In this document: positions 38,998 to 64,000 of the stretch, piece after piece | Layout of the letters: each line of letters starts with the position of its first letter | Numbering within the stretch: the stretch's first letter is position 1 | Assembly (NCBI GenBank): GCA_964420075.1 | Contig: CAYQRE010000022.1 | Span: 5,825 to 69,824, forward strand | DNA from: an uncultured Thermoanaerobaculia bacterium | Lineage (GTDB): Bacteria; Acidobacteriota; Thermoanaerobaculia; Multivoradales; SZUA-115 | Length of the DNA stretch: 64,000 bases | Direction: 5' to 3' | Made by a program: the position numbers and the translations under genes | Notes under the pieces: model-generated | The model's database searches: none | What the model was told of the DNA's origin: nothing | The model's input: the letters and a program-made list of their open reading frames with translations, nothing else

Positions 38998-40563
38998 ATG
39001 CCTGTGAATCCAACCTATCCGGGCGTGTACATCGAAGAGCTGGCGAGCGGGGTGCGGACGATCACCGGGGTCGCCACTTCGATCACCGCTCTCCTGGGCC
39101 GGACGCTGCGCGGGCCGGTCAACCGGCCTATGACCCTCAACAGCTTCGGGGACTTTGAGCGCGTCTTCGGTGGCCTGTGGGCCGAGAGCACCGTGTCCTT
39201 CGCGGTGCGCGACTTCTTCCTCAACGGTGGCAGCCAGGCGGTCGTCGTGCGGTTGTTCCGCGCCTCGGGCAACGGCAAGGCAAAGCTCGTCTTCGGTACC
39301 GCCCCTGACCTCACCCTCGAAGCCGCCTCCGAGGGCCTGTGGGGCAACGCCCTGACGGCAACGGTCTCTTTGCTCGATGCCGCCTCGGCGGCGCAGGTGG
39401 CGCCCCGCCTCGGGGTCGAGCCCGGCGACCTCTTCAATCTGGCGGTGACCGACACCGCGGCGGGCGTTACCGAGGTCCACCGCAACGTCACGGTGCGCGA
39501 CAGCCCGCGCCGGCTGGACCTCGTGCTGGCTGAGGACTCGGCCCTGGTGCGCGTCGCCGGCGCGCTGCCGACGGCGCCGCCGATTCCCAACCCGCCGGGT
39601 ACACCCGTCACCGTCGTCGTCCTACCCACCAACCAGGGCAACGACGGCAGCGCCCTCACCACGACGCAGTTCCAGGGCAGCCGCGCCGCGAAGACCGGCC
39701 TCTATGCCCTGGAGAACGCCGACCTCTTCAACCTCCTCTGCATCCCGCCCTACGCCCCCGGCACCGACGTCACGGCGAGCTTCTGGGCCGAGGCGGCTGC
39801 CTACGCCAGTGAGCGGCGGGCGATGCTCCTGGTCGACCCGCCGGCGAGCTGGGACGAGGTGAACGACGCGGTGAGCGGCATCGCGGCGATCGCCAACCCG
39901 ATGGGCTCGGCGAAGAAGAACGCGGCGTTCTTCTTCCCGCGTCTGAACGAGGCCAACCCGATCCGGCAGGACATGGTCGAGGTCTTCGTCCCCTGTGGCG
40001 CCGTCGCCGGCGTCTTCGCCCGCACCGACGCCCGCCGCGGCGTCTGGAAGGCACCGGCCGGCCTCGAGGCCAACCTCAACGGCGTGGTGGCGCTCAGCGT
40101 GCCGATGACCGACGCCGAGAACGGCCTGATCAACCCGCTGGGAGTCAACGCGCTGCGCAACCGGCCGGCCGCCGGGCCGGTGGTGTGGGGCGCCCGCACC
40201 CTCGACGGCGACGACCGCCTGGCCTCGGAGTGGAAGTACGTGCCGGTGCGCCGCCTCGCCCTCTACCTCGAGGAGAGCCTCTACCGCGGCACCCAGTGGG
40301 TGGTTTTCGAGCCCAACGACGAGCCTCTGTGGTCGCAGATCCGTCTCAACATCGGCGCCTTCCTGCAGACGCTGTTCCGCCAGGGCGCCTTCCAGGGCCG
40401 CACGCCGCAGGAGGCCTACTTCGTCAAGGTGGACCGCGAGACGACCACTCAGGCGGACATCGACCGCGGCATCGTCAACATCGTCGTCGGGTTCGCGCCG
40501 CTGAAGCCGGCCGAGTTCGTGATCGTGAAGATCCAGCAGATCGCCGGCCAGGTCCCGGCCTAG
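38998..40563 (+). CDS. contractile tail sheath protein (eCIS/phage-tail-like)
   Basis: N-terminus MPVNPTYPGVYIEE… is the signature start of phage/eCIS/T6SS sheath proteins. 521 aa. Confidence 0.9.
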   Translation: MPVNPTYPGVYIEELASGVRTITGVATSITALLGRTLRGPVNRPMTLNSFGDFERVFGGLWAESTVSFAVRDFFLNGGSQAVVVRLFRASGNGKAKLVFGTAPDLTLEAASEGLWGNALTATVSLLDAASAAQVAPRLGVEPGDLFNLAVTDTAAGVTEVHRNVTVRDSPRRLDLVLAEDSALVRVAGALPTAPPIPNPPGTPVTVVVLPTNQGNDGSALTTTQFQGSRAAKTGLYALENADLFNLLCIPPYAPGTDVTASFWAEAAAYASERRAMLLVDPPASWDEVNDAVSGIAAIANPMGSAKKNAAFFFPRLNEANPIRQDMVEVFVPCGAVAGVFARTDARRGVWKAPAGLEANLNGVVALSVPMTDAENGLINPLGVNALRNRPAAGPVVWGARTLDGDDRLASEWKYVPVRRLALYLEESLYRGTQWVVFEPNDEPLWSQIRLNIGAFLQTLFRQGAFQGRTPQEAYFVKVDRETTTQADIDRGIVNIVVGFAPLKPAEFVIVKIQQIAGQVPA

Positions 40564-40576
40564 GGAGGTCTCGAGC

Positions 40577-41086
40577 ATGGAATTCAGCGTCAATGCCCAG
40601 CGCCTCGACCCGTACAAGAACTTCAAGTTCCGGGTGAAGTGGGATGGCCGCTACGTCGCCGGGGTGAGCAAGGTCGGCTCGCTCAAGCGCACCACCGACG
40701 TCGTCGAGCACCGCGCCGGCGGCGACCCTTCGACGGTGCTCAAGTCGCCGGGGCAGAACAAATACGAGGCGATCACCCTCGAGCGTGGCCTGACCCACGA
40801 CCCGGAGTTCGAGGCCTGGGCCACCAAAGTGTGGAACTTCGGTGCCGGCCTGGGCGCCGAGGTGTCGCTCGCCGACTTCCGCAAGGACATCATCATCGAG
40901 GTCTACAACGAGGCCGGCCAGCTCGCCCTCGCCTACAAGGTCTACCGCTGTTGGCCGTCGGAGTACCAGGCGCTGCCGGAGCTCGATGGCTCGGGCAACG
41001 CCGTGGCGATCGAGATGCTCACCCTGCAGAACGAGGGCTGGGAGCGGGACACGGCGGTCACCGAGCCGACGGAGCCCAGCTTCTAG
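40577..41086 (+). CDS. tail tube protein (T4 gp19 / Afp1-like)
   Basis: 169 aa with the motif …DPYKNFKFRVKWDG…VSKV. Directly downstream of the sheath gene. Confidence 0.85.
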   Translation: MEFSVNAQRLDPYKNFKFRVKWDGRYVAGVSKVGSLKRTTDVVEHRAGGDPSTVLKSPGQNKYEAITLERGLTHDPEFEAWATKVWNFGAGLGAEVSLADFRKDIIIEVYNEAGQLALAYKVYRCWPSEYQALPELDGSGNAVAIEMLTLQNEGWERDTAVTEPTEPSF

Positions 41087-41107: not shown

Positions 41108-41809
41108 GTGGTGGGAGCGAGCGAGCTGCTGGCGCTGTGGGAGCGGACCCGGGGGCGGTCGCTGGTCGAGCAGGCCCTGGTCCTGCTCGACGGCGCGGAG
41201 CTGCCTCTCGGCGCCGCCAACCGGCTGCTGCTGCGGCGGTACCAGGCGAGCTTCGGCGACCGGCTGGATCTCTACGCTGCTTGCCCGGCCTGCGGTGAGG
41301 AGCTGGAGGTGGCGGTCGCGATCAGCGAGCTCCTGGCGGCAGAAGCGGTGGAAGCCGCCGCCGAGCCCGAGATCGCCCTGGCGAGCGGTGGGCTCACCAC
41401 CCGGCTGCGCCGGCCGGGCTTCGCCGACCTCGCGAGCGTCGCCGAGCTGGCGCCCGCCGAGGCCGAGGCGGCGCTCCTCGCCCGCTGCCTGGTTGCGGCG
41501 GAGCACGAGGGTGCCGCCGTCGCTGCCGCCGACCTCGACACCGGCGCCCGGGAAGCGATCGCGATGGCCCTCGCCGCTGCTGATCCCCTGGCCGAGATCC
41601 TCCTCTCTCTCACCTGCCCGGCCTGCGAGCACGGCTGGCAGGCCCTCGTCGAGCCGGCGCAGTGCCTGGTGCGCCAGATCGAGGCGGCGGCCCATCGGCT
41701 GTTGCGCGAGGTGGACGCTCTGGCCCACTCCTACGGCTGGAGCGAAGGGGAGATCCTGGCCCTGAGCGCGCCGCGCCGGCAGGCCTACCTCGCCATGGTG
41801 ACGGCATGA
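41108..41809 (+). CDS. hypothetical eCIS-associated protein with two CPAC zinc-ribbon-like motifs
   Basis: 233 aa. CPACGEE and CPACEHG motifs about 90 aa apart. Translationally coupled to the next gene. Confidence 0.5.
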   Translation: MVGASELLALWERTRGRSLVEQALVLLDGAELPLGAANRLLLRRYQASFGDRLDLYAACPACGEELEVAVAISELLAAEAVEAAAEPEIALASGGLTTRLRRPGFADLASVAELAPAEAEAALLARCLVAAEHEGAAVAAADLDTGAREAIAMALAAADPLAEILLSLTCPACEHGWQALVEPAQCLVRQIEAAAHRLLREVDALAHSYGWSEGEILALSAPRRQAYLAMVTA

Positions 41810-42708
41810 GCTACCTGGCACGGCTGGCGGCGCGGGCCCGCGGTGAGGGGCCGGAGCTGGCGCCGCGGCGCCTGTCGCGCTTCGATCCCGCCGCCGGGCC
41901 ATGGGTCGCTGAGGGCCGGCTGGAGGGCGCCGAGGCCGGGTCGCCGGTGGGGGATGGGCCGCCGGCGGTGGCGCCTGGGTGGACGGCGGAGCGGCAGCTC
42001 GCCTCGCCCGCGGACCAACCGGGCGCCACCAACGAGCGCCGCGAGCTCCAGCGCCCGAGCTCTGCACCGGCCGTCACCCTTCCCAGCCTGCCGACGGCCG
42101 CCTCCGTCTCGGCCCCGCCTGTCCAGTCCCTACCCATCCGGCCTGTCGATCTGGCCGTCGACGTTGCGCATCCCGCTCACGCAACGCAGGAGCCGGCGCG
42201 GGAGAGGCTGGCCCGGAGGGCGCCCGCTGCTGCGACCAGGATGGACCCGAATCCCACGGCCGGCCCGGCGGTGGAGGCGGAGGAACGGCCGGCACGCAGG
42301 CCGGCCGCTTCGAGCGTGGACGATCAGGCTCCCGGCAGCGACCACCCGCGGCTGCAGCGGCCTGGCCCGATCCGGGCCGTCACTGCCGCCGACGTGACGA
42401 CTGACTTCACTGTCGCGGCCCAGCCGGTCCGGTCCGGTCTCCGCTCCGCTGCCTCGACCGTCTCCGCCCTCGCCCTCCCGGCCGCTTCCGTGCCGCGGGC
42501 CTATCCACGCCCGCTGGCTGCCGAGCTGGCTCGTGAGCAGCGGGCCGAGCGCGGGGCGAGCGACGGCCCGCCGATCGTCCACGTCACCATCGAGAAGGTC
42601 GAGGTGGAGGCTGTGCCGCGCCCTGGACCGCCGCCGCGGCCGACCCCGGCGAGCGGCCCGCGGCTCGCCCTCGGCGACTACCTCGCGGCCCGGGGCCGCC
42701 GGCGATGA
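41806..42708 (+). CDS. hypothetical Pro/Ala-rich low-complexity protein (candidate tube-length/tape-measure-like component)
   Basis: ATGA overlap on both sides. 300 aa, mostly low-complexity, with a conserved-looking C-terminal …IVHVTIEKVEVEA… segment. Confidence 0.45.
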   Translation: MSYLARLAARARGEGPELAPRRLSRFDPAAGPWVAEGRLEGAEAGSPVGDGPPAVAPGWTAERQLASPADQPGATNERRELQRPSSAPAVTLPSLPTAASVSAPPVQSLPIRPVDLAVDVAHPAHATQEPARERLARRAPAAATRMDPNPTAGPAVEAEERPARRPAASSVDDQAPGSDHPRLQRPGPIRAVTAADVTTDFTVAAQPVRSGLRSAASTVSALALPAASVPRAYPRPLAAELAREQRAERGASDGPPIVHVTIEKVEVEAVPRPGPPPRPTPASGPRLALGDYLAARGRRR

Positions 42709-43987
42709 GCAACTACCTCGCCATCGCCACCGCCACGGCGACCCTGCGGCGCTTCCTCCAGGGCGTCGTCGCCGACGACGTCAGTGGCGCCACGGTCACC
42801 ACGGTGCGGCCCGACGCCGCCGGCAGCGGTCTGCCGGAGACCGGCGTCAACCTCTTCCTCTATCAGGTGACGCCGAACCCCGAGCTACGCAACCGCGACC
42901 TGCCGACGCGCCGCAGCGACGGCAGCGCCGCGGCACGGCCCGAGGCCGCCCTCGACCTCCACTATCTGCTGACCTTCTACGGCAACCACGCAACGCTCGA
43001 GCCCCAGCGCCTGCTCGGCAGCGTGGCGCGGTCCATCCACGCGCGGCCGGTGCTCAGCCGCGAGATGATCCTCGCGACCCTGGCTGATCCGGCCTTCGCT
43101 TACCTCGCCGGTTCGGACCTCGCCGACGCCCCCGACAAGGTCCGCCTGACGCCGCAGCTGCTCAAGCTGGAGGAGCTCTACCAGCTGTGGTCCGGCCTGC
43201 TCTCGAAGGCGGACTTCGCCACTTCGCTCGTCTATCGCGCTGGGGTGGTGCTGCTCACCGCCGAGGAGCCGGCGACGGCCGCCCTGCCGGTGCGCGAGCG
43301 CACGCTCACGGTGCAGCCCATCCGCAGCCCGCGCCTCGCGAGCGTGGTGAGCGCCGCCGGTGACGGCGAGCCGATCGTCGTCGGCAGCACCCTGGTGCTG
43401 CGCGGTGAGCGCCTCGCCGGTGAGCGCACGGAGGTACGGCTGGCCGGGCAGGAGGTCGAGCCCGCGGCGGCGAACGTCTCGGCACGCGAGATCCGTCTGC
43501 CGCTCGCCCCGCCCCTCTTCGACGTCGGCACCCTGCGCGCCGGCCCGCAGGGTGCGCAGGTCCTCCACCCGTTCCTGCTCGGCGACCCGCCGCAGCCGCG
43601 GCCGGGCTTCGCCTCGAACGTCGCAGCCTTCGTGCTGCGGCCACTGCTGAGCGACCTTTCCTACCAGCACGCCTCGGGCACCAAGCAGGCGCTGAGCGGC
43701 ACGGTCACCTGCAACGTCAGCCCGCCGATCGCCGTCGACCAGCGCCTCGTCCTGGAGCTCAACGGCCTGCCGGGCCTGTCGGTCGCCGGCCTCTCCTACG
43801 TCTTCGCGGTGCCGCCGGTCGAGGCGCCGACGACTGCTCTCGAGGCGCCGGTCGCGGGCGTCGCCCCTGGCGTCTACCTCGTGCGACTGAGCGTCGACGG
43901 CGCCGCGAGCCCTCTGGTGGCGGACACCACGCCCGGCAGCGCGACGTTCGGGCTCTACATGGAGCCGGCGGTGGAGATCGGCGCGGA

Positions 43988-43991
<4 letters not shown>
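42705..43991 (+). CDS. DUF4255 domain protein (eCIS tail terminator/cap, Afp16/Pvc16-like)
   Basis: N-terminus MSNYLAIATATATLRRFLQ… is characteristic of DUF4255. Confidence 0.8.
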
Positions 43992-45927
<1,936 letters not shown>

Positions 45928-45931
<4 letters not shown>

Positions 45932-46581
45932 CCAGCTTCCCGCGCTCGCCCCGCCTGCTCAAGGGCGCGATCGTCGCCATCGACCCCTTCAACCCGGTGG
46001 CGAGCGTGATCGTCTTCCAGTACAACCCGGAGACGTTGTCGCGCACGCTGGCGCCGCAGCTCGGCGTCGACGGCGGCGCCCGCGCCGAGATCCTCCGCCT
46101 CAAGGGGGCGCCGAAGGAGACGATCGGCGCCGAGATCGCCATCGACGCTACCGACCAGCTCGAGCGCGCCGATCCGCAGGCCACCCGGCTGGGCATCTAC
46201 CCGCAGCTCTCCGCTCTCGAGATGCTGGTCTACCCGAAGAGCAGCCTGGTGATCACCAACACCGCGCTCGCCGCCCTCGGCACCCTCGAGGTGATCGCCC
46301 CGCAGGCGCCCCTGACCCTCTTCGCCTGGGGGGTGCGGCGGATGGTGCCAGTGGTGATCGAGAGCCTGGCGGTGACCGAGGAGGCATACGACGTCAACCT
46401 CAACCCGATCCGTGCCCGCGTCGGCCTGAGCTTGCGCGTGCTCACTTACGACGACCTGCCGATCCTCCACCCCGGCTACGGCATCTACCTGGCGCACCAG
46501 CTGGTCAAGGAAGCGATGGCGACCCTGGCCAGCCTGGAGAACGTCAACGCGGTGGTCGCCGGCGACGTGCGGGTGCTCTAG
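45928..46581 (+). CDS. phage-tail-like protein, possible second tube / tube-initiator (Afp5/Afp7 tube-domain-like)
   Basis: 217 aa. ATGA-coupled. Beta-rich sequence (…IVAIDPFNPVASVIVFQYNPETLSRT…). Its position between the ATPase and the LysM/hub genes supports this call. Confidence 0.5.
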
Positions 46582-46600: not shown

Positions 46601-46903
46601 GTGATGCTCGATCCCGAAAGCCGTTACGCCGAGCTCGAGACCGCCACCCTGACCCTGGCGGACGGCCGCCAGGTCTCGTATCTCAAGCGGCGCTTCCTGC
46701 CGCAGGCGGAGGCGCTGTCCCTGCTCACCGAGGTGGCAGTGCGCGACGGCGAGCGGCTGGACCTGATCGCCGCCCGCACCCTCGGCGACCCTCTGCAATG
46801 GTGGCGGGTGGCGGACGCCAACGAGGCGATGCATCCCGACGAGCTGCTGGCCGAGCCCGGGCGCCGGCTGCGGGTGGCGGTGCCGGAGGTGCTGCCGCGG
46901 TGA
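46601..46903 (+). CDS. LysM-like tail protein (P2 gpX / Afp7 LysM-like)
   Basis: 100 aa. …GERLDLIAARTLGDPLQWWRVADAN… resembles LysM peptidoglycan-binding modules found in tail protein X. Confidence 0.55.
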   Translation: MMLDPESRYAELETATLTLADGRQVSYLKRRFLPQAEALSLLTEVAVRDGERLDLIAARTLGDPLQWWRVADANEAMHPDELLAEPGRRLRVAVPEVLPR

Positions 46904-48045: not shown

Positions 48046-48560
48046 ACGAAGGCGGGATGTCGAACGGGCCGTTCTACGGCAAGTACCGCGGTAAGGTGAC
48101 CAATAACGTCGACCCGCTGCAGATGGGCCGCATCCAGGTCAGCGTGCCAGCGGTGCTCGGTGACGGCCGTCTGTCCTGGGCGCTGCCCTGCGCGCCGCTG
48201 GCGGGCCCGGGCGTGGGCTTCTACGCCGTGCCGCCCCTCGACGCCAACGTCTGGGTGGAGTTCGAGGCCGGGGACCCCGACTCGCCGATCTGGAGCGGCT
48301 GCTTCTGGGACAAGGGGCAGCTGCCCGTCAAGCCGGCGAACCCGTTCACCACCGTGCTCAAGAGCAAGAGCGTCACCCTCACCCTGGTCGATCTGCCGGG
48401 CGCCGGTGGCTTCACCCTCGAGGTCAAGCCGCCGGCGGTGGCCACACCGCTCAAGCTGGCCTTCACCTCGGCGGGGATCGAGCTCCAGAACGGCAAGAAC
48501 TCGATCAAGCTGTCGCCGGCCTCGGTGAGCATCAACAATGGCGCCCTGGAGGTGATCTAG
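48042..48560 (+). CDS. baseplate spike protein (P2 gpV / gp5-like OB-fold)
   Basis: 172 aa. N-terminal …GPFYGKYRGKVTNNVDPLQMGRIQVSVP… is the gpV/VgrG OB-fold signature. Confidence 0.75.
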   Translation: MNEGGMSNGPFYGKYRGKVTNNVDPLQMGRIQVSVPAVLGDGRLSWALPCAPLAGPGVGFYAVPPLDANVWVEFEAGDPDSPIWSGCFWDKGQLPVKPANPFTTVLKSKSVTLTLVDLPGAGGFTLEVKPPAVATPLKLAFTSAGIELQNGKNSIKLSPASVSINNGALEVI

Positions 48561-48883
48561 TGCCGGGCTTCCTCCTCCACAAGGGTGCCGTGGTGCAATG
48601 CGCCCACCTCGGGCGGGCGGAACCGATCCTCACCAACCCGCGGGTCAAGGTGGGCGGCCAGCCGGTGGTGACCCAGGCCGGCCCCTGGCGGGTCTCGGGC
48701 TGCACACTGCCGGCGCCGACGGCGGGCAACGGCCCCTGCCTCACCGCCCTGTGGAGCACGGCTGCCGTGCGCGTGCGGGCGAGCGGCCTGCCCCTCCTCC
48801 TCTTCGACAGCAAGGCGAGTTGCGTGCCGACGGCAACGCCGCTCACCGTCGTCGTCACGCAGCTGCGGGTACGCGGGCAATGA
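48560..48883 (+). CDS. PAAR-like spike-tip protein (DUF4280/PAAR family)
   Basis: 107 aa, Gly/Val-rich with conserved Cys/His (…VVQCAHLG…). Immediately follows the spike gene with a GTG overlapping the stop. Confidence 0.55.
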   Translation: MPGFLLHKGAVVQCAHLGRAEPILTNPRVKVGGQPVVTQAGPWRVSGCTLPAPTAGNGPCLTALWSTAAVRVRASGLPLLLFDSKASCVPTATPLTVVVTQLRVRGQ

Positions 48884-56306: not shown

Positions 56307-58652
56307 ATGCAAGGGGATTTGAGCCGCCACAGCCACGACCCTGCGAAGCGCTTCACGGCGGTGCGCTTCGAGCAGGGGCGGATGCTCGCCGACGCCGACC
56401 TCAACGAGGCGATGCTGCTGGCGCTGGCGCGCCTCGACCGCGTGGCAAGCGATCTCGTGGGGCCCAGCGGCGCGCCGGCGGAGCCGCCCGTTCCCTTCAC
56501 CTGGCAGCCCAGCGCTCTCGACCCCCAGCAGGTGGGGGTCGGCGCCATTCTCACCACGGGCACGGCGGTGATCGGTCGCGGCACGAGCTTCTTCGCCGCC
56601 GGTATCGCGGCGGGGGCACGGCTCCATGCCGGTGGGCAGACGCGCACCGTCGCCACCGTGCTCACCGAGACCGTGCTCCTGGTCGACGAGCCCTTCGAGC
56701 CGGACCTGCCGGCGGCCGGCAATTTCCAGATCACGGTGCGCGACGGTGGGGCCGGCCTGCAGGTGCACGCCGGCTGCTACAGCGTCGCGGGCTTGCGCTG
56801 CGAGCTGGCGGCGACGGTGGCGCTCTCTGCCCAGCCGGACCTCCCCGGCTATGCCCTGCCGAGCGCCGACGGCCGCTATCTCGCCTACCTCGAAGCCTGG
56901 GAACGCACCCTCTCGACGCTCGCGGAGCCCCTCCTCGCCGAGCCGGCCCTGCTCGGGCCGGACACCTGCCTGCGCACCCGGGTGGTGGCCCAGGTCAAGC
57001 TCCTCGCCGTCGGCGCGACGGCGACCTGCGGTGGCTTTGCGGCCTGGGAGCCGTTGCCTCCAGCCGTCCAGCTGGCGGCGCGAAGCCTGGGCCGGCCCCC
57101 TGCCGACCGTCTCTACCGGGTCGAGGTCCAGGCCCCGGGCCCGCCGGGCACGGCGACCTTCAAGTGGGCGCGGGACAACGCCAGTGCCGCGGCGCCGATC
57201 GAGGCCCTGGGGCCCGGCGAGATCACCGTCGCACCGCCGATCGGACTGGCGGGGGAGGCGGCCTTCGCTGCCGGGCAGTGGGTGGAGGTGAGCGACGAGC
57301 GGCGCATTCTCGCCGGCGAGCCCGGCGTGCTCGTGCAGCTCGCGCGCGTCGTAGGCCAGGTGCTCAGCGTCGAGAGCTGGCCGGGTGGCACGCCGCCGCT
57401 CCTCGGCGCCGGCGCGAGCGCCCGCCGTTGGGACTCACCGGGTGAGGTGAGCGTCGAGGTGGGGGAGGCCGGGGACCTCTGGCTATCGATCGAGGGCGGC
57501 CTCGAGGTGCGTTTCGCAGCGGCAGCGGCGGCCAGCTGTGCCGTGGGGGACGCCTGGCTCCTGCCGGTGCGGGTGGCGAGCGGTGGGGTGCTCTGGCCGC
57601 AGCTCGCCGGCACCCCGCTGGCGGTGGACCCGCAGTCGCCCCGCCACCGCTTCGCACCCCTCGCCATCGTCGAGCGGAGTGGCGGCCGTTTCCGGGTAGT
57701 GAGCGATTGCCGCCGCCTCTTCGGCTCCCTCGCCGACCCGCCGAGCGACACCAAGCTCGACCGCGTGCCGGACCCGCCGCCGGCCGGGCCGGACCTGATG
57801 GAAGGGCCGTTGGTGATCGCGAGTGACCTCGCGGTGCTGGGCGGTTTGAGCGTCGGGAGCGTCGACCCGCCGGCGCCAGACCTCCGCCTCGAGGTCACCA
57901 ACGGGGACCTGTTGCTTGCTGCGGGTGGGAGCGCAGGCGTGGTCTGGCCGCCTCTCGCGAGCGGCGGGGCTGCGGGCTTTCTGCGCTTCAGCCAGGTCGC
58001 GGGAGCCACTCCCCAGCTGACCCTCGGCAGCCAGGGCGGCGGTAGCGACCGCCTCATCCTCCGCCAGGGCGGTGTCGACCGCCTGGTGATCGACAATGGC
58101 CGCTTGGGGGTCGGGACGGTGCCGGCGGCCGGGTTCGCCCTCGACGTCGCCGGGACGATGCGGGCCCAGAACCTGCGCATCGAGGGCCCGGTGGTGATCG
58201 CCGGCGGCGCACCGAGCCCCGGTGCCCTCTTCATCACCGACGACGCCGGTCGCGGCAGCTGGGTGCAGCCCCCCGTGCTGGCGCGCGGCCGGCCGCTCTT
58301 CTTTCCGGCACCGGTCGCCGTGGCGAGCGGTGTCGGGGCGGCCCCGGAGACGATCTTCACCTTCCCGGCCGGCGTCCTCTCGCCGGGTGCCCTCGCCGTC
58401 ATCCTGGAAGCCGAGGCGGCGGCCAACACCGGCGACGGGGTGATCCAGATCGCGACCGACCCCGGGGGCACCAAACGCCTGCTGCTGCGGGCCCGCTCGG
58501 AGGGTAGCGGCGACAGCCTGGCCTGGGCCGGACAGGGCGCTTTCCCGCTCAACCAGGAGAGCTTCGTCTACGAGGTCCTTGAGATCACCGCCAACGACGG
58601 CCCGGCCTTCTCCCACGGCTGGGTCTTGCGCGCCATCGGCTACTACCCATGA
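56307..58652 (+). CDS. tail-fibre-like protein, paralog 1 of 3 (781 aa)
   Basis: GAGGAGGG RBS. Blocks shared with the two downstream paralogs: N-terminal GDxSR…QGRxLLDADxNE, …GYALPSxDGRYLAYLEAWER…, LYRVEVQAPGPPGTATFKWARDNAS, WPQLAGT, HRFAPLAIVERSGG…, and C-terminal W.LRA.G[YF][YF]. Confidence 0.6.
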   Translation: MQGDLSRHSHDPAKRFTAVRFEQGRMLADADLNEAMLLALARLDRVASDLVGPSGAPAEPPVPFTWQPSALDPQQVGVGAILTTGTAVIGRGTSFFAAGIAAGARLHAGGQTRTVATVLTETVLLVDEPFEPDLPAAGNFQITVRDGGAGLQVHAGCYSVAGLRCELAATVALSAQPDLPGYALPSADGRYLAYLEAWERTLSTLAEPLLAEPALLGPDTCLRTRVVAQVKLLAVGATATCGGFAAWEPLPPAVQLAARSLGRPPADRLYRVEVQAPGPPGTATFKWARDNASAAAPIEALGPGEITVAPPIGLAGEAAFAAGQWVEVSDERRILAGEPGVLVQLARVVGQVLSVESWPGGTPPLLGAGASARRWDSPGEVSVEVGEAGDLWLSIEGGLEVRFAAAAAASCAVGDAWLLPVRVASGGVLWPQLAGTPLAVDPQSPRHRFAPLAIVERSGGRFRVVSDCRRLFGSLADPPSDTKLDRVPDPPPAGPDLMEGPLVIASDLAVLGGLSVGSVDPPAPDLRLEVTNGDLLLAAGGSAGVVWPPLASGGAAGFLRFSQVAGATPQLTLGSQGGGSDRLILRQGGVDRLVIDNGRLGVGTVPAAGFALDVAGTMRAQNLRIEGPVVIAGGAPSPGALFITDDAGRGSWVQPPVLARGRPLFFPAPVAVASGVGAAPETIFTFPAGVLSPGALAVILEAEAAANTGDGVIQIATDPGGTKRLLLRARSEGSGDSLAWAGQGAFPLNQESFVYEVLEITANDGPAFSHGWVLRAIGYYP

Positions 58653-58864
58653 GCGATACCGACACCCCTGCCGTCCCGCAACCCGACCGTGCCCGCTTGG
58701 AGCGCCGGCTCGCCGAGCTCGACGCCGAGCTCGCCAACGGCGAGCGGCTGATGGCCGAGCTGGAGGACCGCCGCCTGCGCCTGCGCGAGTCGATGCTGCG
58801 CATCGGCGGCGCCATCCAGGTGCTGCGCGAGCTGCTCGATCGGCCGCCGGAGGAGGGGGCATGA
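58649..58864 (+). CDS. small coiled-coil protein (71 aa), possible fibre assembly chaperone
   Basis: ATGA-coupled on both sides. Heptad-like …RLERRLAELDAELANGERLMAELEDRRLRLRESMLRIGGAIQVLRELL…. Confidence 0.4.
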   Translation: MSDTDTPAVPQPDRARLERRLAELDAELANGERLMAELEDRRLRLRESMLRIGGAIQVLRELLDRPPEEGA

Positions 58865-60978
58865 GGGGCGACTTCTCGCGTTCAGGGGCCGCTGTGGCCC
58901 GCAGCCGGCGCAGCGTCGTCTGGCAGCGTGGCCGGGTCGTCCTCGACGCCGACTGGAACGAGGCCGTCGAGCTTCAGGCCGCCGCCCTGGAGGCGCTGGC
59001 GAGCGATCTCTTGGGCGCTGCCGGGAGCCCGAGCGGCGCCGCTCTCGACGTCACAGTCACAGCCGGCGTCCCGACGCTCACGGCCGGCCGATCCTACGTG
59101 GACGGCAGCCTGGTCGAGGTCGAGGCCGCCACCCCGCTCACCGCACAGGCCGACCTGCCGGGCTATGCCTTGCCGAGCGTCCCCGGGCGCTACCTCGCCT
59201 ATCTCGACGTCTGGCTGGAAGGCCTCGGCTGGCTCGACAGCCCGGAGCTCCTCGAGCCGGCCCTCGACGGCGAGGAGAGCGCCCTGCGCAGCCGCGCGGT
59301 GGCGCAGGTGCGGCTCCTGGCGGTCGATGCCGCCGCCGGGCCGGAGCTCTTCCGGCCGGGCTGGCAGCCGGCGGCAGCGCCGCGGCCGCGGCTCGCCGCA
59401 CGCCTCGCGGGTAGCCCGGCCAACAATCAGCTCTACCGCCTCGAGGTCCACGCTGCTGGTGGTCTCGGCACCGCCACCTGGAAGTGGTCGCGGGACAACG
59501 CCAGCGTCACGGCCGGCGTGCTGTCGATCACCGGCACCACGCTTGCCGTGCGCCTGCCGCCACGGGCAGACGCCCTTGCCTGGTTCCCGCCGGGCGGTTG
59601 GGTCGAGGCGACCAGCCGCAGGCGGCGGCTGCGCGGCGAGCCGGGGGTGCTGGCCCGTGTCCTCACCACGATCCCCGGTGCGAGCCCCACTGTCACCGTC
59701 GAGGCCTGGCCAGGAGGCGTGGTGCCGGTGGACGTCGACCGCCTGGTGCGTTGGGATTCCCCCGGTGCCCTGCCGCTCGCTCAGGCGACGGCCAACGGGG
59801 GTTTCGTGCCCCTCGAAGAGGGCCTCGAGGTGCGCTTCTCGGGCGAGGCGGCAGCTGTCGCCACCAGTGGTGACGCCTGGCTGCTGCCGCTGCGGGCCAC
59901 CGCCGGGCTGCTCAGCGAGGAGGACGCCGGCGCTCGCGCGGACGCTGCCACCGCCGAGCCGGACGAGGTCCGCCACCACTACGCGCCACTGCGCCTGCTC
60001 GAGCGCACGGCCGGCGGCTGGCAGCTGGTGGCCGACGGCGACTGCCGGGCGCTCTTCGCGGGTGCCGGCACCATCGACCTCGCCGGCAAGGTAGATCGCA
60101 GTGGCGATACGCGCAGCGGACCCCTCACCGTCGACAGCCATCTCTTGGTCAGCGGCCAGACCCGGCTGGGGCCGGTGGCGGCCGACAGCACGGCGCGCCT
60201 CGCGGTCGCCGACGGCGGCAGCCGGCTGGGAGCGAGCTCGCGCCTGCTGTTCCCGGCGCTCGGGGCGGCCGCGGCGTCCTTGAGCGCGAGCGGCAACGAG
60301 CTGCGGTTGGCGGTCGTCGGCGGCTCGCTGCGCGTGGCGCAGGCCGGGGGGGACCGCCTCGTCCTCAGCGGCGGCCGGGTGGGGATCGGCACGGTCGCGC
60401 CGCAGGTCGACGTCGAGATCGCCGGCAGCCTGCGCGCCGGGCAGCTGACGGTGGCGAGCGAGCTGGTGATCGTCGACGGCAACCAGCGGGCTGGCCGCGC
60501 CCTGACGGCGGTCGATGCGAGCGGCCTCGCCACCTGGCAGGCGCTCAGCGAGCAGCAGCTGGTGCGTCCGACCTTTTTCCAGCGGCCGGTGATCGTGGCA
60601 CAGAGCGGGGGCAGCAGCTTCTTGCCGCTGGTCAACTACGTCTTTCCGGCCAACACCCTGCCGGTGGGTGCGACGGCGGTGATCCTCGAAGGGCGGGCGG
60701 CGGCGAACTCGCCCGACAGCGGTGCAATCGACCACTTCCTGCGGGCCCGTCGCGACGACGCCTCGCCCTGGCTGGTGCTGCTGCGGGCGCGCGCCGCCGG
60801 CGGCTCGGACAACGGCAGCTGGGCCGGTGTCGGCGTCTTCCCCCTCAACACCAACCCGGACCTACCCTTCCACTTCCAATACTCCGTCCAGGCCTTCGCC
60901 GGTGGCCAGGACGTGCCGCCCACCGGCGGCGCCTTCCCCCAGGGCTGGCGCATCCGAGCGGTGGGCTTCTTCCTCTGA
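58861..60978 (+). CDS. tail-fibre-like protein, paralog 2 of 3 (705 aa)
   Basis: Shares all conserved blocks with paralogs 1 and 3 (…LYRLEVHAAGGLGTATWKWSRDNAS…; C-terminal WRIRAVGFFL). Confidence 0.6.
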   Translation: MRGDFSRSGAAVARSRRSVVWQRGRVVLDADWNEAVELQAAALEALASDLLGAAGSPSGAALDVTVTAGVPTLTAGRSYVDGSLVEVEAATPLTAQADLPGYALPSVPGRYLAYLDVWLEGLGWLDSPELLEPALDGEESALRSRAVAQVRLLAVDAAAGPELFRPGWQPAAAPRPRLAARLAGSPANNQLYRLEVHAAGGLGTATWKWSRDNASVTAGVLSITGTTLAVRLPPRADALAWFPPGGWVEATSRRRRLRGEPGVLARVLTTIPGASPTVTVEAWPGGVVPVDVDRLVRWDSPGALPLAQATANGGFVPLEEGLEVRFSGEAAAVATSGDAWLLPLRATAGLLSEEDAGARADAATAEPDEVRHHYAPLRLLERTAGGWQLVADGDCRALFAGAGTIDLAGKVDRSGDTRSGPLTVDSHLLVSGQTRLGPVAADSTARLAVADGGSRLGASSRLLFPALGAAAASLSASGNELRLAVVGGSLRVAQAGGDRLVLSGGRVGIGTVAPQVDVEIAGSLRAGQLTVASELVIVDGNQRAGRALTAVDASGLATWQALSEQQLVRPTFFQRPVIVAQSGGSSFLPLVNYVFPANTLPVGATAVILEGRAAANSPDSGAIDHFLRARRDDASPWLVLLRARAAGGSDNGSWAGVGVFPLNTNPDLPFHFQYSVQAFAGGQDVPPTGGAFPQGWRIRAVGFFL

Positions 60979-60985
60979 GGGCGCC

Positions 60986-63067
60986 ATGGGCCTCGACCTC
61001 TCCCGCGACCTCTTCGACCGCCGCCGGCATCACCGCGGCGTGGTGCTGCAGCAGGGCCGCCTCCTGCTCGACGCCGAGTTCAACGAGCAGGCCGACATCC
61101 TCGAGCACCGCCGGCGCACCACCACGGCGGACCTGGTGGGCCCGAGCGGCGCCGCCGGCGACGGCTTCCGCGTCACGGCGGGTAGCGGCACGCTTGCCGT
61201 CGCGCCGGGCCGCCTCTACCGTGACGGCTTCCTCTGCGAGCTGCTAGCGGCCGTTCCCGATCTCGGAGCTCAGCCCGACCTGCCAGGGGTGGCGCTGCCC
61301 ACCGCCAACGGCACCTATCTCGCCTATCTCGAAGCCTGGGAGCGCGAGGTCTCGGCGGCGGTCGATGCCGACCTCCTCGACCCGGCCTTTGCCAGCCAGA
61401 GGACGGCCGGTCGCCACCGCCTGGTCACCCAGGTGCGGCTGCAGGCGGTGCCGGCGGGGGCGGTCTGCAGCTCTTTCGCCCCGCCCTGGACCCCGGACGG
61501 CACGCCGGCACCCGCCGCCGGGACGCTTGCCGCCAGCGCGGCGGCGGGGGCCACGACGTTCGCGGACCAGCTCTACCGCGTCGAGGTCCACGCTCCCGGG
61601 CCAGCGGGCACCGCGACCTGGAAGTGGGCCCGCGACGGCGCCTCCGTGGAGCTCGCCGTGCTGAGCGTGGCCGGGACGACGCTCAACGTCGCGCCGCGGC
61701 CGGGGCTCGCGCCGGGGACGGCCCTGGCGGCCGGGGATCGGGTCGAGGTGACCGACGACGGCCGCGCCCTGCGCGGCGAGCCGGGGGTGCTGGCCACGCT
61801 CGCTGCCGTCGACCTCGCGGCCGGCACCTTGACCGTCGCCGCCTGGCCGGGGGGCGCGCCGGTCCTCGGCAGCGGCGCCGTGGCCCGCAAGTGGGAAGGC
61901 GACGCCCAGCCCCTCAACGCCGGTGCGACCGTCGTGGTCGACGGTGTGCTGGCGCTGCGCTTCGCGGCCGGCGGCCGGCCGTTCCGCAGCGGTGAGCACT
62001 GGCTGGTCCCCACCCGCCGGGCAGCCGGGGTGCTCTGGCCGCAGCTCGCCGGCACTGCCGAGCCCTTGCCTCCACGCGGCCCGGAGCGCCACTTCGCGGC
62101 CCTCGCCCTGGTGCAGCGCGCCGCAGGCAGCTGGACGGTGGCGAGCGATTGCCGCGTGCCGCTGCGGCCGCTCACCGACACCCTCGACCCTAACAAGGTG
62201 GACCGCGGTGGCGACAGCATGACCGGCCCCCTGACGGTGACCGAGGACCTGATGGTCGTCGCCCAGATGCATGCCGGCGGTACCACCCTGCCTCCGGCCG
62301 GCACCCAGCTGCAGGTGAGCGGCGGCCCCCTGGAAGTGGCGAGCGGTGCCAGCCCGGCGGCGGGCTTGCGCTTCGTCGTTGGGGCCGGCGAGGCGGCCCT
62401 GCGGCTGACTGCGGCAGGCTTCGTCTTCGAGGCAGCAACGGGCGGCAGCCTGGTCTTCCGCGAAGGGGCCGCCGACCGCCTGGTGCTGGCGGCGAGCGGC
62501 AACCTCGGCCTCGGTGTGGCGAGCCCCACGGCGAGCCTGCAGACCGGCGGCCAGGCGCGCGCCACGGCTCTCACGGTGAGCGGCGCCGCCCCCAACGGCG
62601 TCCTCACCTTCGAGCCGGGCGCGATCGACGGCTACGTGCTGACCTCCGATGCCGACGGCAAGGCAACCTGGCAGCAGCTGCCGAGCGCGGCGAGCGGCAG
62701 CCCGGTCTACTTCCCGGACCTCGTCGTGGTGGCGAACGGCAGCACGCCGAGCGGCTACCAAACGTTCACCTTCTCCGATGGCGATGTCCCCGAGGGCGCC
62801 TCGGCCGTCCTCGTCCAGGCGCAGACCTTCGTCCACCACGGTTCGGTCGACATCCGGATTCGGCGCAATGCGGGCGCAGCCGAGGTCTCCTTGCTGCGCG
62901 CGCACTCCTTCGACGGTGGCCCGCTGGTCGGCAAGCGGGTGCAGGGGGGCGCCGCCAATCAGGGCATTTTCCCCCTCGACAACGGCAGCTTCCAGTGGGC
63001 CGTGGTCGAGGAGTTCGGGCCGCTCAGCCTGGCCTGGGAGATCCGTGCCGTGGGCTTCTTCCTGTAG
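60986..63067 (+). CDS. tail-fibre-like protein, paralog 3 of 3 (693 aa)
   Basis: Shares conserved blocks (…LYRVEVHAPGPAGTATWKWARDGAS…; C-terminal WEIRAVGFFL). Confidence 0.6.
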   Translation: MGLDLSRDLFDRRRHHRGVVLQQGRLLLDAEFNEQADILEHRRRTTTADLVGPSGAAGDGFRVTAGSGTLAVAPGRLYRDGFLCELLAAVPDLGAQPDLPGVALPTANGTYLAYLEAWEREVSAAVDADLLDPAFASQRTAGRHRLVTQVRLQAVPAGAVCSSFAPPWTPDGTPAPAAGTLAASAAAGATTFADQLYRVEVHAPGPAGTATWKWARDGASVELAVLSVAGTTLNVAPRPGLAPGTALAAGDRVEVTDDGRALRGEPGVLATLAAVDLAAGTLTVAAWPGGAPVLGSGAVARKWEGDAQPLNAGATVVVDGVLALRFAAGGRPFRSGEHWLVPTRRAAGVLWPQLAGTAEPLPPRGPERHFAALALVQRAAGSWTVASDCRVPLRPLTDTLDPNKVDRGGDSMTGPLTVTEDLMVVAQMHAGGTTLPPAGTQLQVSGGPLEVASGASPAAGLRFVVGAGEAALRLTAAGFVFEAATGGSLVFREGAADRLVLAASGNLGLGVASPTASLQTGGQARATALTVSGAAPNGVLTFEPGAIDGYVLTSDADGKATWQQLPSAASGSPVYFPDLVVVANGSTPSGYQTFTFSDGDVPEGASAVLVQAQTFVHHGSVDIRIRRNAGAAEVSLLRAHSFDGGPLVGKRVQGGAANQGIFPLDNGSFQWAVVEEFGPLSLAWEIRAVGFFL

Positions 63068-63078
63068 GAGGGCGCAGC

Positions 63079-64000
63079 GTGCAGACGAGGGCTCGAGCAC
63101 CCCTGCCGACGAGAATCGAGCGTGGCGTCCAGAAGGCGAAAGGGCATGGCGAGCCGCTGTCCCAGGCGGTCGCTGGCGAGCTCGGCAACGCCATCGGCAC
63201 GGACGTCTCACGGGTCCGTGTGCATGCCGACGGCGGCGCTGATCGTCTGAGCCGCGAGGTCGATGCAGCGGCCTTCACGGTGGGGGAGGACGTCTTCTTC
63301 CGCCGCGGCTTTTTCCAACCGCAGACGCCGGAAGGGCGCGGCCTCCTCGCCCATGAGCTCACCCATGTGGCGCAGCAGCGCGCCAGCCGCGGCCTCGATC
63401 TCGGGGTTGCCGCGCCCGCCTCCCTGGCGCCGGACGGGCGGCCTCTGGCGCCGGCCGTCTTGCAGCGCAAGCCCTTCAAGGGGCCCAATCTGACCAGCGT
63501 GAACCGTGTCGCCACCAACTTCGCCGCCCACGCCTTCCAGTTCGTGGGCGCGGCGCGGGCCACCACCGGCTGCGGCACCGACAACAAGATCACCACCGAC
63601 GGCTCGTCGGTCAACAACGCCGTGTCCAGGCCCGGCACTCCCGCGAAGATGGGCACCTACCGGGGAGGCTTCTCGCAGGCCGGCGGCCTGGTGCGCGACA
63701 AGGTCTTGGCGCAGGCTGCCACCCGCATGCACCTGATCAATCATCGCCTGGAGAACAGCGCGAAGACCCAGCGCAACGCCCGTAACATCTTCCTCGGCAC
63801 CCAGAAGAGCAACAACCCAACGCACTTGAACGAGGTCGAGCAGCCGGTGATCGATGCCGTGACCAACCACGGCACGCAGGACAACTTGCGCTATCAGGCG
63901 GCGATGGCGGCGGCCGTCAAGACCACCGACAAAGCGGGGGCCGACATCCTGTTCTGGGCCGCCAAGCCCAACAACCTGGCCGTCAAGCACACGCAGCTCA
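63079..64000 (+). CDS. DUF4157-domain protein (eCIS-associated HExxH putative effector), 5' part; continues beyond the window
   Basis: Not in the ORF track because it has no stop inside the window. GTG at 63079 after AGGAGGG. Hand translation gives …PLPTRIERG…GTDVSRVRVHADGGADRLSREVDAAAFTVGEDVFFRRGFFQPQTPEGRGLLAHELTHVAQQ…, the DUF4157 core with HELTH. Confidence 0.7.
   Translation, partial: MQTRARAPLPTRIERGVQKAKGHGEPLSQAVAGELGNAIGTDVSRVRVHADGGADRLSREVDAAAFTVGEDVFFRRGFFQPQTPEGRGLLAHELTHVAQQRASRGLDLGVAAPASLAPDGRPLAPAVLQRKPFKGPNLTSVNRVATNFAAHAFQFVGAARATTGCGTDNKITTDGSSVNNAVSRPGTPAKMGTYRGGFSQAGGLVRDKVLAQAATRMHLINHRLENSAKTQRNARNIFLGTQKSNNPTHLNEVEQPVIDAVTNHGTQDNLRYQAAMAAAVKTTDKAGADILFWAAKPNNLAVKHTQL

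Follow-up and report, generated by a model that had tools for sequence, protein, structure and literature searches.

Contractile injection systems of the eCIS superfamily are catalogued in dbeCIS as subtypes, each of which keeps its own conserved synteny (Chen et al. 2019, PMC6899500). Lineage II is distinguished by a split afp8 (gp27/gp5), a sheath-first gene order, and a cap and ATPase situated in mid-operon; afp11 is duplicated in subtypes IIa and IIc, and afp10/PAAR is absent from IIb only (PMC6899500). DUF6519 (eBAP5) fibres encoded 3' of a Tail_P2_I gene have also been catalogued as a baseplate type (Nachmias et al. 2026, PMC12923769); multi-fibre loci make up 23.4% of loci, and such fibres are regarded as a mark of target binding (PMC12923769). 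DUF4157 is established as an effector marker (PMC8213781, PMC11297309) and binds the spike complex (PMC11126660, PMC13277306). In Streptomyces, the CIS wedge is composed of two gp6-like (Cis11) subunits and one gp7-like (Cis12) subunit (PMC12237407), and CIS-Sc is cytoplasmic and kills its producer (PMC10066040, PMC12237407).

Here, we describe a locus in a 64,000-nt stretch of DNA (the window) that is very probably the structural operon of an eCIS-superfamily contractile injection system and the first part of its effector module, in the organisation of dbeCIS lineage II and most like that of IIa. A GC3 frame plot and start-codon inspection delineated 19 complete plus-strand genes between positions 38998 and 63067, followed by a 20th that starts at 63079 on the same strand and runs past the window end (Table 1). 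Twelve of the 19 junctions are 4-nt ATGA/GTGA overlaps and one is a 1-nt overlap, while gaps of 7-21 nt separate the genes at the remaining six. A first-pass annotation had reported about 20 linked plus-strand genes forming a complete operon; the linkage holds, but the operon extends beyond the window, as contig L005, 100% identical to the window across 13,015 nt, adds ~3.4 kb to it. A candidate promoter is located in the 232-bp divergent intergenic region 5' of the sheath gene; promoter-like sites, recognised by consensus match alone, numbered two against 0.1 expected in shuffles. Functions were called from Pfam, NCBIfam, PHROGs and PDB profile searches, which back the earlier listing of sheath, tube, cap, ATPase, hub, spike, tip, gp25, baseplate, Tail_P2_I, fibre and DUF4157 genes in that order. 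The locus has the full set of eight "core backbone" components defined by Chen et al. 2019 (PMC6899500).

Table 1. Features of the eCIS-like operon and their main supporting matches.
Feature	Assignment	Length (aa)	Coordinates	Strand	Evidence
Promoter	candidate sigma-70-type, TTGACA-17-TATGCT		38851..38879	+	10/12 consensus matches
g01	sheath (Afp2/Cis2-like)	521	38998..40563	+	Pfam Phage_sheath_1 + Phage_sheath_1C
g02	inner tube (Afp1/Cis1-like)	169	40577..41086	+	Phage_T4_gp19 2.5e-43; TIGR02241 5.4e-40
g03	acidic protein with two CxxC pairs	233	41108..41809	+	Pfam T4_baseplate PF12322 7.5e-9, over curated cut-off
g04	Ala/Pro/Arg-rich basic protein, pI 10.7, conserved termini	300	41806..42708	+	
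g05	cap/tail terminator (Afp16/Cis16-like)	428	42705..43991	+	Pvc16_N (DUF4255) 6.9e-41, residues 11-198
g06	AAA+ ATPase (Afp15/Cis15-like)	647	43988..45931	+	Pfam AAA 2.3e-26; winged-helix WHD 5.6e-15
g07	second tube-family protein	217	45928..46581	+	CIS_tube 9.6e-5, under curated cut-off
g08	putative small LysM/gpX-like baseplate protein (Afp7-like)	100	46601..46903	+	weak matches
g09	gp27-like spike hub (N-terminal half of Afp8/VgrG)	381	46900..48045	+	11-ortholog profile
g10	gp5/gpV-like spike (C-terminal half of Afp8/VgrG)	172	48042..48560	+	Phage_base_V 1.7e-23
g11	PAAR-like spike tip (Afp10-like)	107	48560..48883	+	12-ortholog profile
g12	gp25-like baseplate wedge/sheath initiator (Afp9-like)	121	48880..49245	+	GPW_gp25 1.1e-17
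g13	baseplate J/gp6-like paralog 1 (Afp11-like)	810	49242..51674	+	TIGR02243 2.2e-68
g14	baseplate J/gp6-like paralog 2 (Afp11-like)	864	51671..54265	+	TIGR02243 1.7e-64; weak Baseplate_J
g15	Tail_P2_I/gp7-like wedge protein	675	54262..56289	+	Tail_P2_I 2.7e-6; TIGR02242 + TIGR01634
g16	fibre paralog 1 (DUF6519/eBAP5)	781	56307..58652	+	DUF6519 3.3e-25
g17	acidic coiled-coil-like ORF between fibres 1 and 2	71	58649..58864	+	ATGA overlaps both sides
g18	fibre paralog 2 (DUF6519/eBAP5)	705	58861..60978	+	DUF6519 7.3e-24
g19	fibre paralog 3 (DUF6519/eBAP5)	693	60986..63067	+	DUF6519 4.5e-26
g20	DUF4157/eCIS_core protein	307/446 codons in window	63079..64000	+	DUF4157/eCIS_core 5.5e-23

The sheath protein g01 aligns over its full length with the Streptomyces CIS sheaths 8bky/9gtp (4e-72) and 8bl4/9gts (1.8e-69), and the tube protein g02 is 75-80% identical to its counterparts in related loci. 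Relatives also retain the C-terminal extension of the cap protein g05, and the ATPase g06 carries Walker A (GPSGTGKT, residue 439) and Walker B (VLLFDE, residue 493) motifs. Orthologs of g07, 45-57% identical, occupy the equivalent position in every related locus; together with its weak family match, this synteny makes g07 a candidate tube initiator (Afp5/Cis5-like).

The spike is indeed split into gp27-like and gp5-like proteins, as first proposed: on the NCBIfam VgrG_rel model, g09 covers positions 278-348 and g10 the next stretch, positions 376-463. While g09 has no Pfam match, a profile of 11 orthologs aligns to residues 62-342 of VgrG 9rce_F at 4.6e-5. A 12-ortholog profile likewise aligns g11 to the phiKZ PAAR tip 6p1z (2.5e-5), and g11 additionally shows a weak DUF4280 match over its full length and invariant Cys and His residues. 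Of the two gp6-like paralogs, which are 30-32% identical across two segments, g13 matches the baseplate J-like protein 9gtp_1K (2.4e-10). By the role given in PMC12923769, g15 is the probable fibre adaptor. The initial LysM call for g08 stands weakly, on synteny and on matches to Phage_tail_X (E=0.09) and to PHROG baseplate wedge (3.9e-4) and hub (1.2e-3) families; a RefSeq ortholog, 41.6% identical, is annotated "tail protein X", and the motif GERLDxIAxxxLGDPxxWWxxxxAN is visible by eye.

Two proteins encoded after the tube gene had been listed as unknown. One of them, g03, is a T4 baseplate-hub-family protein, as it matches PHROG 150 "baseplate hub" (6.5e-7) in addition to PF12322, and its gene is kept 3' of the tube gene in relatives; an assembly-factor role is a guess. 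The other, g04, indeed lacks a family match in Pfam, NCBIfam and PHROGs. Its orthologs at the equivalent position in the related loci L010-L013 have N-terminal MSxxLxRL and C-terminal PxVHVTIGRIEVRA...SLxxYL motifs, and its relatives among 1.84e9 representatives were found through the C-terminal ~60 aa only; g04 is a candidate tube-lumen or length-determining protein, a role that we guess at. The small ORF g17, not on the first-pass gene list, is also called as a gene on a Logan contig, has no family match in Pfam or PHROGs, and is a possible fibre assembly factor, again by guesswork.

At the 3' end, the fibre proteins g16, g18 and g19 are full-length paralogs with pairwise identities of 38-40%; g16 has an N-terminal insertion of ~85 aa, and residues 494-571 of g19 match the Bdellovibrio Bd2133 protein 8ond (3.1e-4). 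The DUF4157 protein g20, whose C-terminal domain is conserved and without annotation, is a candidate cargo toxin. Past the window, L005 carries the rest of this gene, a Methyltransf_28+TPR gene (g21, any role of which in the system is a guess), a second DUF4157 gene (g22), and then a gene on the opposite strand.

Judged here from genes alone, lysis is the most likely route of release, and the released particle most likely targets other cells. We infer the "extracellular" label of the first-pass annotation from the three fibre paralogs only, because the closest solved sheaths (8bky, 8bl4) belong to cytoplasmic, producer-killing Streptomyces CIS. These best full-length solved matches might instead suggest an intracellular or membrane-directed machine, like CIS-Sc/SLP or the S. 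davawensis CIS, that stays inside its producer and fires there, with regulated cell death, release of eDNA or an effect on development as the outcome. CIS-Sc itself is cytoplasmic (PMC10066040, PMC12237407), the S. davawensis CIS with its DUF4157 effector influences the life cycle of the very cell that makes it (PMC11126660), and no lysis cassette or regulator was recognised adjoining the operon. We nevertheless consider such a mode unlikely: CIS-Sc and SLP are without tail fibres, whereas here a Tail_P2_I adaptor is followed by three DUF6519 paralogs, of a kind that the literature treats as a target-binding mark, and no CisA-like membrane-anchor gene was recognised.

The earlier suggestion of an unusual lineage is not supported; it was drawn from a comparison with Afp/PVC (subtype Ia) only. 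The order does differ from that of subtype Ia; a comparison with dbeCIS by gene content instead shows the hallmarks of lineage II, most like subtype IIa (or IIc) by published gene-content rules rather than by Afp11-tree placement. An unrecognised eCIS lineage, defined by the non-Afp/PVC order and split spike, would draw further on the 90%-identity protein clusters of just 1-3 members each and on the closest Afp11 among GTDB species representatives, only 45% identical. Such a lineage is nonetheless very improbable, given that lineage II is already described as having a split afp8, a duplicated afp11 and a synteny particular to each subtype, and that the baseplate type with DUF6519 fibres and Tail_P2_I is published as well. 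Moreover, 12 MAG loci spread over about nine phylum-level groups share this gene order (Afp11 identity 36-45%), a RefSeq Streptomyces plasmid gives tblastn matches to all structural genes from g01 through g16 apart from g04, and sheaths 52-60% identical to g01 are found on Rhizobium and Ensifer as well as Streptomyces replicons. The gene order is thus the normal layout of a catalogued subtype, and the locus is a further example of it, not a new kind.

The host is an uncultured high-GC Gram-negative (diderm) bacterium, and upstream genes are diderm housekeeping genes only, among them those for a TonB-dependent receptor, an OEP and AcrB and a pair encoding an ECF sigma factor and FecR. Neither the 39 kb preceding the operon nor the 3.7 kb that follows the window contains a capsid, portal, terminase, integrase, tRNA or T6SS membrane-complex gene; this result bears out the initial report of no head or integration genes and covers both the downstream DNA and the T6SS genes named as checks. 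With no head, packaging, integrase or T6SS membrane-complex gene in 64 kb + 3.7 kb, the locus is read as neither a prophage tail nor a T6SS, in agreement with the first assignment to the eCISs, which the core eight and DUF4157 sustain. Although every structural gene has myovirus tail homologs and many related sheath genes are listed as "viral" contigs in IMG/VR, a defective-prophage tail module, or a cargo-free R-type tailocin that kills by puncturing membranes, deserves virtually no credence. Capsid, portal, terminase, integrase, lysis and tRNA/att features are absent from the 64 kb + 3.7 kb; the Pvc16_N cap, AAA+ ATPase and DUF4157 mark eCISs and are not found in phages or R-type bacteriocins (PMC6899500, PMC12210884); and the best isolated-phage sheath is only ~30% identical.

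For the released, fibre-bearing particle, a working scheme can be proposed, every step of which is taken by homology from the solved assemblies of CIS, T4 and pyocins. The split spike would assemble first from the g09 hub and gp5-like g10, with the PAAR-like g11 on top and the LysM-like g08 joining. It would then nucleate a baseplate with wedges of g12 (gp25), the gp6-like paralogs g13 and g14, and gp7/gpI-like g15. The tube would be initiated by g07 and polymerise from g02, with g01 forming the sheath around it and g05 closing the distal end; g06 may assist assembly or cargo loading, and g03 (T4 hub-family, CxxC) and g04 (disordered, with conserved termini) may be accessory assembly or lumen proteins, g04 being the candidate length determinant. 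Fibres g16, g18 and g19 would attach via g15 and recognise targets. The DUF4157 domains of g20 and of the second such protein, beyond the window, would dock variable C-terminal toxin domains to the spike/tube-initiator complex, and sheath contraction would eject the docked toxins.

Among named systems, Afp/PVC (subtype Ia) shares the superfamily core, the Afp15 ATPase, the Afp16 cap and 3'-end cargo toxins with the locus, but its genes are ordered differently and include those for three sheath paralogs, VgrG in a single ORF, one copy of Afp11 alongside Afp12, a tape measure (Afp14) and adenovirus-like Afp13 fibres; only the C-terminal sheath domain aligns. Streptomyces coelicolor CIS-Sc and S. 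lividans SLP (dbeCIS IId; 8bky, 9gtp) provide the closest solved structures for the sheath and baseplate J protein and, as here, have no canonical tape measure; their wedge of two gp6-like subunits and one gp7-like subunit also resembles the one proposed for the locus. Unlike the locus, CIS-Sc encodes VgrG in a single ORF, carries one cis11 gene and lacks fibres. The Streptomyces davawensis CIS (Nagakubo et al. 2024, PMC11126660) represents a clade common to Proteobacteria, Chloroflexota and Actinobacteria, with synteny conserved across diderms and monoderms, and compared by description, close relatives of the locus resemble this clade in phylum mix and mid-operon DUF4157 position. Its DUF4157 effector Tme binds the spike and tube initiator (PMC11126660); Tme exceeds 2000 aa, is tape-measure-like and is encoded 5' of the baseplate genes, whereas the DUF4157 proteins here are ~450 aa and encoded at the 3' end.

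Another counterpart, known from RefSeq annotation only, is an eCIS-like locus carried by plasmid NZ_CP109155.1 of Streptomyces europaeiscabiei NBC_01735, where g01-g16 minus g04 are matched at 30-77% identity (tblastn), a 479-aa ORF stands in the g04 position and a DUF4157 gene adjoins. In contrast to our locus, its baseplate/fibre module is inverted and converges on the sheath module, it has a single fibre of 1035 aa, its DUF4157 gene is divergent 5' of the sheath, and a BTAD regulator adjoins. With the eBAP5/Tail_P2_I type (PMC12923769), the locus shares the DUF6519 N-terminal attachment domain, fibres directly 3' of Tail_P2_I and a multi-fibre arrangement; its three full-length paralogs are within the reported range, near the top (maximum five; PMC12923769). 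That type correlates with Actinobacteriota (PMC12923769), whereas the present host is a diderm with TonB, OEP and AcrB. Finally, dbeCIS IIa/IIc (PMC6899500) have, like the locus, the core eight, a split afp8, two afp11 paralogs and a PAAR-like afp10, without a recognisable afp14 tape measure, and carry extra subtype-specific genes without known domains, which correspond here to g03 and g04; the divergent afp12/13 equivalents (the Tail_P2_I protein and fibres) point to IIa. The locus departs from its relatives in having three fibre genes where they carry one, and in placing its effectors at the 3' end rather than between the ATPase and tube initiator, as in most close relatives.

The genes that begin at position 38998 of the window form a 22-gene operon that ends ~3.4 kb beyond the window, and their products match the eight components of the eCIS core backbone (Chen et al. 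2019, PMC6899500), with a candidate in the case of the Afp7 LysM protein. At ~73% G+C, the window fills any raw list of ORFs with spurious frames; genes were defined by a third-position GC frame plot together with inspection of start codons, and independent metagenome contigs with 100% identity to the window (over 13.0 and 13.8 kb) carry matching gene calls. The gene model comprises 19 complete plus-strand genes (38998-63067) and a 20th, starting at 63079, that is cut by the window end. Among the 19 junctions, 12 are 4-nt ATGA/GTGA overlaps, one is a 1-nt overlap and six are gaps of 7-21 nt, in agreement with the first-pass annotation, which had described about 20 consecutive plus-strand genes, almost all joined by start-stop overlaps. 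That annotation had also called the operon complete within the window, a claim that does not hold: the identical metagenome contig L005, which reaches past the window end, carries the remainder of g20, a gene for a Methyltransf_28+TPR protein (g21) and a second DUF4157 gene (g22), after which comes a gene on the opposite strand.

Features of the operon and its surroundings, with the matches behind each assignment. Coordinates refer to the window unless another sequence is named.
Feature	Coordinates	Strand	Assignment	Matches and remarks
DUF4386 paralog 1	7042-7788	+	membrane protein
MerR/B12 regulator cluster	7944-13955	+	see text
Efflux set	16148-21750	+	OEP-(unannotated 336 aa)-AcrB RND efflux
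DUF4386 paralog 2	21774-22463	-	membrane protein	14 kb from paralog 1
Receptor set	24505-28444	-	ECF sigma-FecR-TonB-dependent receptor
356-aa ORF	30444-31514	+	Ig-type domain (see text)	PHROG "Hoc-like head decoration", E=8e-4, weak
Repeat protein	31617-38765	-	2,382 aa, Sec-type signal peptide	17 DUF11 repeats, DUF7507, CARDB, DUF7927; divergent from sheath gene
Candidate promoter	38851-38879		sigma-70-like, TTGACA-17-TATGCT	in 232-bp divergent intergenic region
g01		+	sheath	Phage_sheath_1/1C; full-length match to Streptomyces CIS sheath 8bky, 4e-72
g02		+	tube	Phage_T4_gp19, 2.5e-43
g03		+	233-aa CxxC protein, T4 baseplate-hub family	PF12322, 7.5e-9; PHROG 150, 6.5e-7
g04	41806-42708	+	300-aa Ala/Pro/Arg-rich basic protein	no family match
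g04 orthologs	L010 2012-2782; L011 2172-3197; L012 389-1327; L013 2-436			in related loci
g05		+	cap	Pvc16_N/DUF4255, 6.9e-41
g06		+	AAA+ ATPase	Pfam AAA, 2.3e-26; Walker A and Walker B intact
g07		+	second tube-family protein	CIS_tube, weak
g08		+	100-aa LysM/gpX-like protein	Phage_tail_X, E=0.09, weak; PHROG wedge/hub, 4e-4 to 1e-3
g09		+	gp27-like hub	ortholog profile vs VgrG residues 62-342 (N-terminal half), 4.6e-5
g10		+	gp5/gpV spike	Phage_base_V, 1.7e-23
g11		+	PAAR-like tip	ortholog profile vs phiKZ PAAR tip, 2.5e-5
g12		+	gp25	GPW_gp25, 1.1e-17
g13, g14		+	baseplate assembly proteins (Afp11/baseplate J)	TIGR02243, 2.2e-68 and 1.7e-64, both above cut-off
g15		+	Tail_P2_I protein	Tail_P2_I
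g16, g18, g19		+	DUF6519 paralogs (fibres 1-3)	DUF6519, ~1e-24 to 1e-26; full-length, 38-40% mutual identity
g17	58649-58864	+	71-aa acidic, coiled-coil-like ORF	ATGA overlaps with fibres 1 and 2; no family match
g20		+	DUF4157/eCIS_core protein, 446 aa in full	HELTH motif
g20, g21, g22	L005 12094-16461 (~63079-67446 in window coordinates)		Methyltransf_28+TPR protein (g21, 526 aa) between two DUF4157 proteins (g22, 453 aa)

Assignments were drawn from Pfam, NCBIfam, PHROGs and PDB sequence and profile searches, and these confirmed the order of components listed at first pass, except that the small gene g17 between the first two fibre genes had been left out; its product may be a fibre assembly factor. 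Sheath, tube, cap and ATPase occur together with equivalents of Afp8, Afp9 and Afp11, and the cap and ATPase genes (g05 and g06) are adjacent with an ATGA overlap. A candidate for the Afp7 LysM equivalent is g08, which has weak matches and a position conserved across relatives; its ortholog in RefSeq carries the name "tail protein X", and the g08 ortholog profile returned no PDB match. Single-sequence PDB searches yielded nothing useful for the cap protein g05 or for the hub protein g09, the match for the latter emerging only with an ortholog profile. Direct evidence for a split spike gene comes from g09 and g10, whose genes overlap by ATGA and whose products match consecutive stretches (278-348 and 376-463) of a single VgrG-related model, NF033848 VgrG_rel. 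The three DUF6519 fibre genes come directly after the Tail_P2_I gene g15. Collectively, the core components and the DUF4157 genes support the assignment to the eCISs that was made at first pass.

Two other contractile machines were weighed against this assignment. For a prophage, the only head-like signal was the 356-aa ORF at 30444-31514, whose sole match, a weak one, is to a head-decoration family; we read it as an Ig-type domain and rejected it as a capsid gene. Neither the 39 kb upstream nor the 3.7 kb downstream contains a capsid, portal, terminase or integrase gene, which bears out their absence as reported at first pass; additionally, no lysis genes were found in the window or the downstream part of the contig, and no tRNA in the window. 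A T6SS, for which TssB/C/M/L-type genes nearby had been proposed as the telltale, can be dismissed both in its classical form (i-iii) and as T6SS-iv, since Pfam scans of the frame-plot-supported window genes and four downstream genes found no TssB/C sheath pair, TssJLM or TssK, or ClpV, and the locus carries cap and baseplate J genes, which T6SSs lack (PMC6899500).

Upstream of the locus, 31.6 kb of sequence encode chromosomal functions ordinary for a diderm bacterium, including an amidohydrolase, a GNAT acetyltransferase, a MerR/B12 regulator, an amine oxidase, two CMAS methyltransferases and a PMT-family glycosyltransferase; the OEP-AcrB and TonB-dependent receptor sets identify the host as diderm. 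The regulator, a MerR-HTH plus B12-binding protein of CarH/LitR-like architecture, adjoins the amine-oxidase/NAD_binding_8 protein and the two cyclopropane-fatty-acid-synthase-type methyltransferases, and these genes may form a lipid or pigment cluster under the control of light or B12. Two paralogous DUF4386 membrane proteins are also encoded in this region. The 2,382-aa repeat protein, whose gene diverges from that of the sheath, is a probable surface adhesin; across this gene the plus strand has a strong positive GC skew. A functional link between this protein and the operon was considered and rejected, as in no related locus does it precede the sheath gene; we treat it as a neighbour only.

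Searched with the Afp11-type protein g13, the GTDB species representatives yielded 12 loci at 36-45% identity, from Rokubacteria, Gemmatimonadota/Longimicrobiaceae, Polyangia, Dormibacteraceae, Abditibacteriales, Rhizomicrobium, Actinomycetota and Ktedonobacteraceae, the nearest Afp11 relatives (42-45%) being in Longimicrobiaceae/Gemmatimonadota and Rokubacteria MAGs. When all window proteins were compared with these 12 loci by tblastn, gene order proved identical wherever the contig extends: sheath, tube, g03, (g04), cap, ATPase, tube 2, g08, gp27, gp5, PAAR, gp25, two Afp11, P2_I and DUF6519 fibre. What varies among the loci is the position of the DUF4157 gene and the number of fibres, with one fibre region in the relatives vs three in the window. 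Of 78 related sheath loci in IMG/VR, the closest nine were compared, with sheaths 53-57% and tubes 74-81% identical and g03 following the tube gene where the contig extends. Sheaths 52-60% identical occur on annotated replicons of Rhizobium leguminosarum, Ensifer adhaerens and Streptomyces europaeiscabiei, and sheaths of isolated phages reach ~30% identity at best. By tblastn, the S. europaeiscabiei plasmid locus (NZ_CP109155.1, 208392-229501) matches all structural genes g01-g16 apart from g04, with its baseplate/fibre module in the opposite orientation to the sheath module; adjacent to it are a divergent DUF4157 gene and a BTAD regulator. At 90% identity, the window proteins fall into clusters of 1-3 members, and thus have almost no close relatives.

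The locus touches on how length is set in lineage II CISs, whose particles are uniform in length despite having no Afp14-type or otherwise recognisable tape measure (PMC6899500; PMC12237407). For this reason, the disordered but conserved g04 protein is a speculative, testable candidate. Its gene immediately precedes the cap gene, as do the orthologs in four related loci (L010-L013); all that these orthologs retain is a short motif at the N-terminus and a PxVHVTIGRIEVRA...SLxxYL motif at the C-terminus, on either side of a disordered middle. A word-indexed homolog search with g04 returned one 98%-identical copy and nothing else, and an exhaustive phmmer scan just three short matches, all to the C-terminal motif. 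We consider it unlikely, if worth testing, that this family (~230-480 aa, mostly disordered and Ala/Pro-rich, encoded between the hub-family and cap genes) is the lineage II length determinant or a tube-lumen protein; that such a protein would measure length as an extended chain and not as a helical ruler, which forms part of this proposal, is just as doubtful.

DUF4157 genes lie mid-operon, between the ATPase and tube-initiator genes, in six related loci (L007, L008, L009, L012, L017 and L018), and at the 3' end in two others (L011 and L014) as well as in the window; given this variable placement, the effector module seems to move as a cassette. DUF4157 is a published effector marker (Geller et al. 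2021, PMC8213781; Danov et al., PMC11297309). The C-terminal part of g22 shows a DH...GG...N...N pattern that is HNH-like by eye and has no Pfam match. Two candidate cargo proteins, each a DUF4157 fusion whose C-terminal domain is unannotated, along with three diverged fibres, make the locus of interest for mining eCISs for retargetable delivery vehicles and new toxins.

Taking every step from homology, we infer that the spike would be built from g09, g10 and g11 with g08, and the wedge from g12, the g13/g14 pair and the gp7/gpI-like g15, in analogy with CIS-Sc and pyocin R2, in which the wedge consists of two Cis11 and one Cis12 (PMC12237407). The second tube-family protein g07 would start the tube and g02 extend it, with g01 as sheath and g05 as cap, while the ATPase g06 would aid assembly or loading. 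The fibres g16, g18 and g19 are predicted to attach via g15, and the DUF4157 domains would dock cargo onto the spike/tube-initiator complex, as established experimentally in Streptomyces systems (PMC11126660, PMC13277306). On the basis of the fibre genes alone, particles would be released and act extracellularly; the closest solved relatives are cytoplasmic (PMC10066040, PMC12237407) and, in contrast to the three fibre genes here, have none.

Among known systems, each dbeCIS subtype keeps a characteristic gene order and carries additional genes that lack known domains (PMC6899500). An afp8 gene split into separate Gp27 and Gp5 ORFs characterizes subtypes IIa, IIb and IIc; afp11 is duplicated in IIa and IIc, afp10/PAAR is missing only from IIb, and afp14 is generally absent from lineage II (PMC6899500). 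The window locus resembles IIa and IIc in its split afp8 (g09, g10), two afp11 genes (g13, g14) and PAAR gene (g11), and by these published gene-content features it fits subtype IIa, possibly IIc. The earlier suggestion of an unusual eCIS lineage is therefore not supported: the gene order appeared unusual because Afp/PVC (subtype Ia) was the only yardstick, and it matches both published lineage II features and the 12 relatives. In its three DUF6519 proteins downstream of a Tail_P2_I gene, the locus is also like the baseplate type in which DUF6519 serves as the eBAP5 fibre attachment domain tied to Tail_P2_I adaptors, and multi-fibre loci make up 23.4% of eCIS loci (Nachmias et al. 2026, PMC12923769). 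Finally, in S. davawensis-type CISs the gene directly preceding the baseplate genes encodes Tme, a large, tape-measure-like effector with DUF4157 (PMC11126660), whereas in the window the ATPase gene leads directly into the tube initiator with an ATGA overlap and the DUF4157 genes, encoding proteins of ~450 aa, lie at the 3' end, unlike the mid-operon DUF4157 genes of several of its relatives. The locus leaves the classification of these systems unchanged and adds to them a well-resolved, fibre-bearing lineage II CIS from an uncultured, high-GC diderm.
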